A DNA stretch of 64,000 nucleotides, from assembly GCF_024298765.1 (NCBI RefSeq), contig NZ_CP101210.1; one strand, given 5' to 3'. Position 1 is the stretch's first letter, and every line of letters begins with the position of its first letter. Shown here piece after piece: positions 14,418-19,117 of the stretch. Source of the stretch: Escherichia coli. GTDB taxonomy: Bacteria > Pseudomonadota > Gammaproteobacteria > Enterobacterales > Enterobacteriaceae. Below the pieces are notes generated by a model, which worked only from the letters and a program-made list of their open reading frames with translations, had not been told where the DNA came from and searched no databases. The translations under genes were made by a program, and so were the position numbers.

Positions 14418-15665
14418 ATGGCGGGAACCGTTTTGTATCAGGACCGCGCCATGAAACAGATAACCTTTGCTCCTCGTAATCACCTGCTCACCAATACCAA
14501 TACCTGGACGCCCGACAGCCAGTGGCTGGTGTTTGACGTGCGGCCTTCTGGGGCGTCGTTTACCGGCGAGACCATTGAGCGTGTGAATATCCATACCGGC
14601 GAGGTCGAGGTTATCTATCGCGCGTCACAGGGCGCATACGTCGGCGTGGTGACCGTTCATCCGAAGTCAGAGAAGTATGTCTTCATCCACGGCCCGGAAA
14701 ATCCTGATGAAACATGGTATTACGACTTTCATCATCGGCGCGGAGTGATTGTTGAAAGCGGCAAGGTGAGCAATCTCGATGCAATGGATATTACCGCGCC
14801 ATATACGCCAGGAGCGCTACGTGGCGGCAGCCATGTACATGTCTTTAGCCCGAACGGTGAAAGGGTGAGCTTTACCTACAACGACCATGTAATGCATGAA
14901 CTCGATCCGGCGCTGGATTTGCGAAACGTCGGTGTTGCTGCACCGTTTGGCCCGGTCAACGTACAAAAGCAGCATCCGCGTGAATACAGCGGTAGCCACT
15001 GGTGCGTGCTGGTAAGTAAAACCACGCCCACGCCACAGCCTGGCAGTGATGAAATCAATCGTGCTTATGAAGAAGGATGGGTAGGAAATCACGCGCTGGC
15101 GTTTATTGGCGACACACTTTCGGCAAAGGGCGAGAAAGTGCCGGAGCTGTTTATTGTCGAGTTGCCGAAAGATGAAGCTGGCTGGAAAGCGGCAGGTGAT
15201 GTGCCGTTAAGTGGAACGGAAACAACCCTGCCTGCGCCACCGCGTGGTGTCGTGCAGCGACGTTTAACCTTTACGCACCATCGGGCTTATCCGGGATTAG
15301 TCAACGTCCCGCGCCACTGGGTGCGCTGTAATCCGCAGGGTACGCAAATCGCGTTTTTAATGCGTGATGATAACGGCATTGTGCAACTGTGGCTTATCTC
15401 GCCACAGGGCGGCGAGCCGCGCCAGTTAACCCATAACAAAACGGATATTCAGTCTGCATTTAACTGGCATCCGTCAGGCGAATGGCTGGGATTTGTGCTG
15501 GATAATCGGATTGCTTGTGCCCATGCGCAAAGCGGCGAGGTTGAGTATTTAACCGAAAACCACGCCAATCCACCTTCTGCGGACGCCGTGGTTTTCTCGC
15601 CGGATGGTCAATGGTTGGCGTGGATGGAGGACGGTCAGTTGTGGATCACCGAAACTGACCGCTAG
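14418..15665 (+). CDS. yidR: uncharacterized protein YidR
   Basis: 415-aa ORF; K-12 order cbrA-yidR-yidQ-ibpA. Confidence 0.75.
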   Translation: MAGTVLYQDRAMKQITFAPRNHLLTNTNTWTPDSQWLVFDVRPSGASFTGETIERVNIHTGEVEVIYRASQGAYVGVVTVHPKSEKYVFIHGPENPDETWYYDFHHRRGVIVESGKVSNLDAMDITAPYTPGALRGGSHVHVFSPNGERVSFTYNDHVMHELDPALDLRNVGVAAPFGPVNVQKQHPREYSGSHWCVLVSKTTPTPQPGSDEINRAYEEGWVGNHALAFIGDTLSAKGEKVPELFIVELPKDEAGWKAAGDVPLSGTETTLPAPPRGVVQRRLTFTHHRAYPGLVNVPRHWVRCNPQGTQIAFLMRDDNGIVQLWLISPQGGEPRQLTHNKTDIQSAFNWHPSGEWLGFVLDNRIACAHAQSGEVEYLTENHANPPSADAVVFSPDGQWLAWMEDGQLWITETDR

Positions 15666-15668
15666 CTC

Positions 15669-16001
15669 TCAGTTTGCAGGCATTTTGGCGGGGGGAATGA
15701 CGTTATTGGTTTCTTGCGCGTCGGCTTCGCTTTTTTCAACGCGCGAGCGCACTGAGCTGTCTTTGCGGAACACATCCCACGGTAGCAATATTGTGTCCAG
15801 TACTGCGGTAAATGGCATGTCGAGTATCGCCAGCGATTTTGTGCCCCAGTTGGTTTCATCGTCGCCAATCATGGTTGCGCTGGCGCGGGTGCCAGGATAC
15901 GTTCCTTCTTTCCCCCCGGTATGGGACATCACGCTGGAGCATCCTCCGAGTAATGTCATTCCGCTGCATATCATGAACGCTAACAACACATTTCTTATCA
16001 T
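15669..16001 (-). CDS. yidQ: small membrane/lipoprotein YidQ
   Basis: 110 aa from MIRNVLLAFMICSGMTLLGGC (signal plus lipobox-like LGGC). Confidence 0.7.
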   Translation of the reverse strand: MIRNVLLAFMICSGMTLLGGCSSVMSHTGGKEGTYPGTRASATMIGDDETNWGTKSLAILDMPFTAVLDTILLPWDVFRKDSSVRSRVEKSEADAQETNNVIPPAKMPAN

Positions 16002-16175
16002 AATAAATTCATCTGTTGATCGTGGGTGTTGGCCTGATGAGTTATAGCGATCCCTTGCTGAAAATAACATCATCATTACGTCGCACTGTGGCGGCTATCG
16101 CACTTTAACGTTTCGTGCTGCCCCCTCAGTCTATGCAATAGACCATAAACTGCAAAAAAAAGTCCGCTGATAAGG

Positions 16176-16203
16176 CTTGAAAAGTTCATTTCCAGACCCA
16201 TTT
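16176..16203 (+). promoter_or_regulatory. sigma-32 heat-shock promoter of ibpA
   Basis: CTTGAAA (16176-16182), 13-nt spacer, CCCATTTT (16196-16203), matching the sigma-32 consensus. Confidence 0.6.
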
Positions 16204-16306
16204 TTACATCGTAGCCGATGAGGACGCGCCTGATGGGTGTTCTGGCTACCTGACCTGTCCATTGTGGAAGGTCTTAGATTCTCGCTGATTTCAGGAGCTA
16301 TTGATT

Positions 16307-16720
16307 ATGCGTAACTTTGATTTATCCCCGCTTTACCGTTCTGCTATTGGATTTGACCGTTTGTTTAACCACTTAGAAAACAACCAGAGCCAGAGTAATG
16401 GCGGCTACCCTCCGTATAACGTTGAACTGGTAGACGAAAACCATTACCGCATTGCTATCGCTGTGGCTGGTTTTGCTGAGAGCGAACTGGAAATTACCGC
16501 CCAGGATAATCTGCTGGTGGTGAAAGGTGCTCACGCCGACGAACAAAAAGAGCGCACCTATCTGTACCAGGGCATCGCTGAACGCAACTTTGAACGCAAA
16601 TTCCAGTTAGCTGAGAACATTCATGTTCGTGGTGCTAACCTGGTAAATGGTTTGCTGTATATCGATCTCGAACGCGTGATTCCGGAAGCGAAAAAACCGC
16701 GCCGTATCGAAATCAACTAA
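16307..16720 (+). CDS. ibpA: small heat-shock protein IbpA
   Basis: 137 aa starting [20 protein letters not shown]; alpha-crystallin domain. Confidence 0.95.
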
Positions 16721-16831
16721 TTCCCTAAGGCCGCCTTGCGCGGCCTGACATCTCCATGCTCGCCGTCAGGGAGCATATGCGAATCTTCGGATTTGCAGGT
16801 ACTTACTCGCTTCTTAGAAGGAGAAATGACT

Positions 16832-17260
16832 ATGCGTAACTTCGATTTATCCCCACTGATGCGTCAATGGATCGGTTTTGACAAACTGGCCAACGCACTG
16901 CAAAACGCCGGTGAAAGCCAGAGCTTCCCGCCGTACAACATTGAGAAAAGCGACGATAACCACTACCGCATTACCCTTGCGCTGGCAGGTTTTCGTCAGG
17001 AAGATTTAGAGATTCAACTGGAAGGTACGCGCCTGAGCGTAAAAGGCACGCCGGAGCAGCCAAAAGAAGAGAAAAAATGGCTGCATCAAGGGCTTATGAA
17101 TCAGCCATTTAGCCTGAGCTTTACGCTGGCTGAAAATATGGAAGTCTCTGGTGCAACCTTCGTAAACGGTTTACTGCATATTGATTTAATTCGTAATGAG
17201 CCTGAACCCATCGCAGCGCAGCGTATCGCTATCAGCGAACGTCCCGCGTTAAATAGCTAA
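16832..17260 (+). CDS. ibpB: small heat-shock protein IbpB
   Basis: 142 aa starting [19 protein letters not shown]; paralogue directly downstream of ibpA. Confidence 0.95.
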
Positions 17261-17275
17261 CTAGCTATTCTCTTT

Positions 17276-17304
17276 GCCCCGCCATTCTGGTGGGGCTTTT
17301 TTTG
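17276..17304 (+). terminator. rho-independent terminator after ibpB
   Basis: gccccgccattctggtggggcttttttt. Confidence 0.5.
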
Positions 17305-17455
17305 TCTTTCTTCTTCAACAATGCGTTAATTTTCGCCTGTTTAAGATATTTCGGCACGTTCTTTCCCGTGATAATGTGCGCTATAAGGCAAATCTGCTTC
17401 ACCGATTCAGCCATAATCCGTAGCAATTAAAATGTTATCTCAAGAGAAATGGACG

Positions 17456-19117
17456 ATGAGTGATATAGCATTAACGGTCAGTATTCTGGCTTTGGTGGCG
17501 GTCGTCGGGTTGTTTATCGGCAACGTCAAGTTTCGCGGTGTTGGATTGGGCATTGGCGGCGTGCTGTTCGGTGGGATCATCGTCGGCCATTTTGTTTCTC
17601 AGGCGGGGATGACATTAAGTAGCGATATGCTGCATGTTATTCAGGAATTTGGCCTGATCCTGTTCGTTTATACCATCGGGATTCAGGTAGGGCCGGGCTT
17701 CTTTGCCTCATTGCGCGTCTCCGGATTACGCCTCAACCTGTTTGCTGTTCTGATCGTCATCATCGGGGGGCTGGTTACCGCCATCCTGCATAAACTGTTT
17801 GATATTCCACTGCCGGTAGTACTGGGGATTTTCTCCGGTGCGGTAACCAATACGCCAGCACTGGGGGCAGGGCAGCAGATCTTGCGCGACCTGGGGACAC
17901 CGATGGCGATGGTCGATCAAATGGGGATGAGCTATGCGATGGCGTATCCATTTGGGATTTGCGGCATTTTGTTCACTATGTGGATGCTGCGGGTTATTTT
18001 CCGCGTCAATGTTGAGACTGAGGCCCAGCAGCACGAGTCCACGCGAACCAACGGCGGTGCGCTAATCAGGACGATTAACATCCGAGTTGAGAATCCTAAT
18101 TTGCATAATTTAGCCATTAAAGATGTGCCGATTCTCAATGGCGATAAAGTTATTTGCTCACGATTGAAACGAGAAGAAACCCTAAAAGTGCCTTCGCCAG
18201 AAACCGTTATTCAACTGGGCGATTTGCTGCATCTGGTGGGGCAGCCTGCGGATTTACATAATGCGCAACTGGTGATTGGTCAGGAGGTCGATACCTCGCT
18301 GTCTACGAAAGGCACTGACTTGCGCGTCGAGCGTGTGGTGGTCACCAATGAAAACGTGCTCGGTAAACGTATTCGCGACCTGCACTTTAAAGAACGCTAT
18401 GACGTTGTTATCTCGCGCCTGAACCGTGCTGGTGTTGAATTAGTTGCAAGTAGCGATATCAGCCTGCAGTTCGGCGATATCCTCAACCTGGTGGGGCGTC
18501 CGTCCGCAATTGATGCCGTTGCCAATGTGCTGGGGAATGCGCAGCAAAAACTGCAACAGGTTCAGATGCTGCCAGTGTTTATTGGTATCGGGCTTGGCGT
18601 ATTGTTAGGTTCTATTCCCGTCTTTGTGCCTGGGTTCCCGGCGGCGTTGAAACTCGGGCTGGCGGGCGGTCCGCTGATTATGGCGTTGATCCTCGGGCGT
18701 ATCGGCAGTATCGGCAAGCTGTACTGGTTTATGCCACCAAGCGCTAACCTGGCGCTACGCGAGTTAGGCATTGTGCTCTTTCTCTCGGTGGTTGGCCTGA
18801 AATCCGGCGGCGATTTTATCCATACACTGGTGGATGGCGAAGGGCTAAGCTGGATTGGTTATGGTGCCCTGATCACCGCCGTTCCGCTGATTACTGTTGG
18901 CATTCTGGCGCGGATGTTAGCCAAAATGAATTACCTGACCATGTGCGGGATGCTGGCTGGCTCCATGACCGATCCTCCGGCGCTGGCGTTTGCTAATAAT
19001 CTTCATCCAACCAGCGGTGCGGCGGCGCTTTCTTACGCCACTGTCTATCCGTTGGTGATGTTCCTGCGCATTATCACCCCCCAATTACTGGCGGTGCTCT
19101 TCTGGAGTATCGGTTAA
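17456..19117 (+). CDS. yidE: putative transporter YidE (AAE family, two TrkA-C domains)
   Basis: 553 aa from [19 protein letters not shown]; duplicated membrane halves flanking soluble domains. Confidence 0.85.

Follow-up and report, generated by a model that had tools for sequence, protein, structure and literature searches.

What controls the expression of ibpA and ibpB in this stretch of Escherichia coli DNA, and is any part of that control out of the ordinary? The stretch analysed here (the window) is 64,000 nucleotides long. The interval of interest within it, 16176–16831, runs from a candidate promoter to the base directly 5′ of the ibpB ATG (16832), and so takes in the leaders of both genes. 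A sequence-only reading of the window had proposed that ibpA is preceded by a sigma-32 promoter and that both leaders are the positions of known RNA thermometers, and it had described the whole as an expected feature. We find that the feature is real, that this interpretation of it is right, and that it is already known.

Genes and identity of the locus

On the plus strand the locus contains yidR (14418–15665), ibpA (16307–16720, 137 aa), ibpB (16832–17260, 142 aa) and yidE, which begins at 17456; yidQ (15669–16001) lies on the minus strand. ibpA and ibpB each match annotated E. coli records with 100% identity. A domain search found an HSP20 domain in each of the two proteins, which are paralogues with 51% sequence identity. 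The operon ends in an intrinsic terminator at 17276–17303 (plus strand), consisting of a 9-bp GC-rich stem (17276–17296) followed by TTTTTTT. Sub-threshold Rfam matches to the Hrs1 and anti-hemB RNAs at 17232–17303 coincide with this terminator hairpin and were rejected, as they are merely the terminator.

A 1.5-kb query around the locus matched numerous complete E. coli chromosomes at 100% identity, and the locus was present in 5419 of 5426 genomes. Its position corresponds to the window coordinates in several assemblies, for example NZ_CP006834.2, and the RefSeq annotation has ibpA, ibpB and a ROSE feature at 16241–16313. Genes, gene order, neighbours and promoter are shared with ibpAB of K-12 (b3687–b3686). 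The locus is thus almost certainly the ibpAB small heat-shock operon of E. coli in its canonical form, controlled in the layered manner already known: an ordinary, well-studied operon, nearly identical to that of K-12, as the earlier reading had expected.

For comparison with other species, loci were collected by searching one genome per species with an 18-mer of the ibpA leader, TCTCGCTGATTTCAGGAG. The search returned 108 loci, 104 of them true Enterobacteriaceae ibpA. The remaining four matches, mostly from Prevotella, are unrelated to ibpA and were dropped. In three Prevotella contigs (L012, L052 and L084) the same 18-mer is again followed by ATG, and the short open reading frames 3′ of it resemble one another while being unrelated to ibpA. 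The comparisons below use 102 upstream regions for the promoter, 98 distinct ibpA leaders and 84 distinct ibpB leaders.

The sigma-32 promoter

The consensus sequence for sigma-32 is CTTGAAA, 13–15 bp and CCCCAT (PMC3168786). The −35 element, read from the sequence at 16176–16182 on the plus strand, is CTTGAAA and matches this consensus at seven of seven positions. The −10 element, aCCCATTTT at 16196–16204 on the same strand, matches CCCCATnT less well, with five of the six positions of CCCCAT. The sigma-32 motif proposed earlier is thus borne out, although the spacer needs a comment. It had been given as 13 nt, which is not correct for the strings as they were written, because the distance from CTTGAAA to CCCATTTT (16197–16204, plus strand) is 14 nt (16183–16196). 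It is correct when the −10 element is placed in the consensus register, as aCCCAT at 16196–16201. The −10 element ends 103 nt before the ATG of ibpA at 16307, in good agreement with the "about 100 bp upstream" of the earlier description.

The pattern CTTGAAA-N12–15-CCCAT occurs once on the two strands of the window, against 0.07 occurrences expected from shuffled sequences. Among the Enterobacteriaceae, 98 of 102 species have CTTGAAA unchanged and the other four have CTTGATA. An exact ACCCATTT is found in 62 of the 102, with the CAT(T/C)T core kept in most of the variants. In 63 of the 102 species the strict motif is present with a gap of 14 nt, and ends between 103 and 116 nt 5′ of the ATG. 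The sequence between the two elements is poorly conserved. Conserved elements separated by a variable spacer are what is expected of a promoter, and this supports the assignment. In agreement with it, a genomic SELEX peak for the RpoH holoenzyme has been reported in the spacer between ibpA and yidQ (PMC5493296). From the geometry of the promoter and the start of the first leader hairpin at 16211, we infer that transcription of ibpA starts near 16210 (16209–16212).

The region upstream of the −35 element also contains conserved sequence. Two blocks within 16128–16163 are kept across about 100 species of the Enterobacteriaceae. One of these, CAGTCTATGCAAT, belongs to a palindrome, GTCTATGCAATAGAC, at 16129–16143; the other, AAACTGCAAAAAAAAGT, resembles an UP element and spans −63 to −47 relative to the presumed start. 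These blocks could serve either ibpA or the divergent gene yidQ, which is the neighbour in all 92 of 92 loci. Further upstream, the minus-strand sequence GCACGAAACGTTAAA (16104–16118) is identical to the marbox that has been reported in enterotoxigenic E. coli, beneath a MarA ChIP-seq peak in the spacer between ibpA and yidQ. Both divergent genes are about 100 bp away, with the marbox upstream of each. A RamA/SoxS peak has been reported at the corresponding spacer in Salmonella.

The ibpA leader

The ibpA leader is about 97 nt long (16210–16306, plus strand, with the start placed as above). Its minimum free energy structure has an energy of −34.4 kcal/mol (z = −2.26 compared to shuffled sequences), and for the sequence from 16210 to the AUG the centroid and the minimum-energy structure are the same, namely three hairpins. 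All are on the plus strand. Stem-loop 1 (16211–16249) and stem-loop 2 (16252–16273) are stable, with ΔG at 37°C of −18.5 and −9.0 kcal/mol, respectively. Stem-loop 3 (16281–16297), the putative thermosensor, has the structure of the Rfam ROSE_2 family. In this hairpin CUC-G-CUG pairs with CAG-GAG, so that the ROSE motif UCGCU (16282–16286), with a bulged G at 16284, covers the Shine-Dalgarno (SD) sequence AGGAG (16293–16297).

This is the arrangement by which ROSE elements are defined (PMC3669281): U(U/C)GCU is paired imperfectly with the SD, around a bulged G, in the 3′-proximal hairpin. ROSE elements have two to four hairpins 5′ of an HSP20 gene, and the ibpA leader has three, which is also the published layout. 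The Rfam model RF01832 (ROSE_2) matches at 16241–16313 on the plus strand over its full length (1–73) with 96.6 bits, compared to a gathering score of 65, and E = 6e-22. The same publication reports a 4-fold induction by the E. coli ibpA thermometer, and that this leader thermoregulates when transcribed from a neutral promoter (PMC3669281). The description of the ibpA leader as the site of an RNA thermometer is therefore well founded, in view of the match above cut-off and the published three-stem-loop layout.

The fold is also supported by comparison between species. In the 98 distinct leaders 86.5% of cells are paired, compared to 33–52% for slid controls, and the covariation score is 0.231, compared to no more than 0.087 for the same controls. 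The upper stem of stem-loop 1 is 92.4% paired, with compensatory changes in seven of its nine pairs. Stem-loop 2 is 93.8% paired, and one of its pairs changes between GC (45 sequences), AU (40) and GU (11). Stem-loop 3 is invariant because the comparative search was anchored on it, and its invariance is therefore not independent evidence of conservation or covariation.

When coding sequence is included in the folding, RNAfold favours an alternative structure, in which CGC pairs with GCG of AUGCGU and UCAG pairs with UUGA. This structure was rejected, since its only variable helix is 62% paired, with one C-G pair in 25 of 98 species and no covariation.

The ibpB leader

The ibpB leader is the 111-nt region between ibpA and ibpB (16721–16831, plus strand), and is predicted to fold into four hairpins with a minimum free energy of −40.4 kcal/mol (z = −2.91). 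All four are on the plus strand. Folding places a GC-rich hairpin without a T-run at 16728–16746, directly 3′ of the ibpA stop codon; the terminator scan did not call this hairpin. Hairpin 2 (16756–16776) is 84.9% paired, with compensatory changes in six of eight pairs. Hairpin 3 (16778–16797), which has a UUCG loop, has compensatory changes in all eight of its pairs and is 73% paired in an alignment that is gappy here. The fourth is the SD hairpin (16806–16823), in which CUC-G-CUUC pairs with GAAG-GAG.

The sequence of the SD hairpin is CUCGCUUC-UUA-GAAGGAG, and it is of the same design as stem-loop 3 of ibpA: UCGCU (16807–16811) with a bulged G at 16809 is paired to the SD sequence AAGGAG (16818–16823). 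It is 99.7% paired in the 84 distinct leaders. This hairpin played no part in selecting the loci for comparison. Its loop varies (UUA, UCA, AAA or UUU), and in four species the anti-SD sequence is UUGCU, a variant which the ROSE definition permits. Over the whole leader 85.1% of cells are paired, compared to 42–53% for controls.

The ibpB leader thus has the U(U/C)GCU anti-SD, the bulged G and the SD within the 3′-proximal hairpin, with extra hairpins upstream and an HSP20 gene downstream, all of which belong to the ROSE pattern. In a search of 16721–16840, no match was found to ROSE, ROSE_2, ROSE_3 or any other Rfam family at E ≤ 1. The leader is therefore predicted to work like a ROSE element, yet it falls outside the covariance models for these elements. 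The literature describes RNA thermometers in the leaders of both ibpA and ibpB. Together with the near-invariance of the ROSE-like SD hairpin across species, this upholds the second thermometer site suggested from the sequence.

Stability of the hairpins

A check proposed with the earlier reading was to fold the leaders at 30 and at 42°C. Of all the hairpins, the two that contain the SD are by far the weakest, with energies of −4.1 and −4.0 kcal/mol at 37°C, compared to −8.4 to −18.5 kcal/mol for the others. Stem-loop 3 of ibpA goes from −5.0 kcal/mol at 30°C to −3.4 at 42°C, and the SD hairpin of ibpB from −5.1 to −3.2 kcal/mol. These calculated energies fit a leader design that combines stable with unstable hairpins. 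Melting between 30 and 42°C is not reproduced by nearest-neighbour folding, which keeps both SD hairpins closed well above 42°C, and the predicted exposure of the SD shifts with the 3′ boundary chosen for the calculation.

Comparison with K-12 and the variant at 16277

Comparison with K-12 was the other check proposed. Over 1.46 kb the locus differs from that of K-12 MG1655 at 11 bases, two of which are inside the interval of interest. The promoter is identical, and the leaders differ at just these two bases, 16277 and 16737, neither of which alters a core element. Five of the 11 differences cluster at 17309–17337, just 3′ of the ibpB terminator and before yidE.

At 16737 (plus strand) the window has T and K-12 has G. 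The base is in the loop of the hairpin at 16728–16746, and is outside any GG/GC sigma-54 element. At 16277 (plus strand) the window has G and K-12 has C. In the Rfam model of stem-loop 3 this breaks the outer C-G pair 16277–16303, giving one non-standard G-G pair in the match to ROSE_2 (model positions 37–63). Of 5417 complete E. coli genomes, 1103 contain the exact 73-nt ROSE sequence of the window, with G16277. In other species G at this position is rare or absent (less than 10%), and the outer pair is weakly conserved, being standard in only about 55% of species.

It is conceivable that the change from C to G might favour an alternative fold, and so reset ibpA translation or repression by IbpA in this lineage. 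In some folding windows the SD exposure at 30°C is indeed 0.55 with G and 0.28 with C, although this difference comes and goes with the 3′ boundary. The isolated thermosensor hairpin has an energy of −4.6 kcal/mol with either allele. Given the equal hairpin energies, the boundary-dependent exposure and the weak conservation of the pair, a functional effect of the SNP was set aside: a reset of this kind is improbable, and any effect is probably small.

A model for expression of ibpAB

The observed motifs, folds, Rfam match, covariation and identity with K-12 can be combined with sigma-32 dependence, thermosensing, IbpA feedback and RNA processing, which are taken from the literature, to give a model for the operon. 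RNA polymerase carrying sigma-32 would recognise CTTGAAA-N13-aCCCAT and start near 16210. Heat would raise the level of sigma-32 and with it the transcription of ibpAB from this promoter, to give a transcript that spans ibpA and ibpB and would end at the intrinsic terminator at 17276–17303. This bicistronic RNA would then be processed into monocistronic RNAs, as has been described in the literature. In the ibpA leader, two stable 5′ hairpins would be followed by a weak third, where UCGCU pairs imperfectly with the SD around the bulged G. The third hairpin is expected to hide the SD at low temperature and to open on warming. In the ibpB leader, three stable hairpins would precede an SD hairpin of ROSE design, which would likewise open with temperature. 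In addition, oligomers of IbpA would bind the structured leaders and repress translation until protein aggregates titrate IbpA away; repression by IbpA via both leaders has been reported in the literature. Taken together, these steps are established knowledge.

Three other explanations bear on parts of this model. One is that the promoter-like match is due to chance, and that the true promoter lies elsewhere in the 305-bp spacer. One match to the pattern was also seen in seven of 100 shuffles of the window. However, the distance from the match to the first leader hairpin is as expected, its −35 and −10 are both conserved whereas the intervening sequence is not, and a simple scan found no sigma-70-like promoter in 15600–17800. 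We consider a chance match to be very improbable indeed. Another explanation is that ibpB is also transcribed alone, from a sigma-54 promoter in the 3′ part of ibpA, in which case the intergenic region would be the leader of a separate transcript. The literature does place ibpB under independent regulation in the sigma-54 regulon, and there is a candidate, TGGTAAATGGTTTGCT at 16641–16656, which matches TGGCAC-N5-TTGCA at eight of 11 positions and is the only GG-N10-GC site resembling it in 16100–16860. Against this, the window contains 48 equally good chance matches. The candidate also overlaps the codons for LVNGLL, where synonymous positions vary freely in 98 species and TTGC is usually CTGC. 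The candidate is weak and unconserved at synonymous sites, and separate transcription of ibpB from such a promoter appears unlikely.

The last explanation accepts the folds and differs in what they are for: the leaders would be mainly binding sites by which IbpA senses aggregation, with melting by temperature as a secondary matter. Much of the literature is in keeping with this. Reporters with either leader are repressed by IbpA, aggregates or deletion of ibpA cause derepression at constant temperature, and weakening any one of the three stem-loops relieves repression. The upstream hairpins, which do not contain the SD, are conserved by covariation. On the other hand, both leaders retain the ROSE design (UCGCU, bulged G and weak SD helix), and the E. 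coli ibpA leader is reported to thermoregulate from a neutral promoter (PMC3669281). The two mechanisms are also not mutually exclusive. A mainly aggregation-sensing role is possible, if somewhat unlikely, and we prefer the model in which sigma-32, the two thermometers and IbpA feedback act as successive layers.

Related thermometers

ROSE_2 is the Rfam family for the enterobacterial ibpA thermometer, and its full-length match here includes both stem-loop 2 and stem-loop 3, together with the SD and the start codon. Stem-loop 1 is outside the model, which also fails to detect the leader of ibpB. The founding ROSE element is ROSE1 from hspA of Bradyrhizobium japonicum, where the SD in the leader of a small heat-shock gene is also masked by imperfect pairing in the 3′-proximal hairpin. 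There too, the pairing of the SD includes a bulged G. ROSE1 differs in having four hairpins and an alpha-proteobacterial sequence; the Rfam ROSE family (RF00435) gave no match here at E ≤ 1. The short ROSE-like thermometers of Pseudomonas ibpA (PMC3669281) share with the present locus a sigma-32 promoter and a U(U/C)GCU anti-SD hairpin 5′ of ibpA, and likewise consist of a stable 5′ hairpin and a labile 3′ hairpin. They are smaller, with two hairpins in about 60 nt; here the ibpA leader has three hairpins within about 97 nt, and the 111-nt ibpB leader has four.

Significance

The ibpAB operon is a textbook example of heat-shock control in layers, which combines a sigma-32 promoter with RNA thermometers and feedback by a chaperone, and the present locus has little import beyond its correct annotation. 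The comparison between species nevertheless adds something of modest value, in that for both leaders the stable hairpins are backed by covariation among about 100 species of Enterobacteriaceae. Current Rfam models miss the ROSE-like SD hairpin that is conserved in the ibpB leader. Finally, position 16277 provides one common natural variant within the ibpA thermometer of E. coli, which would be cheap to test.
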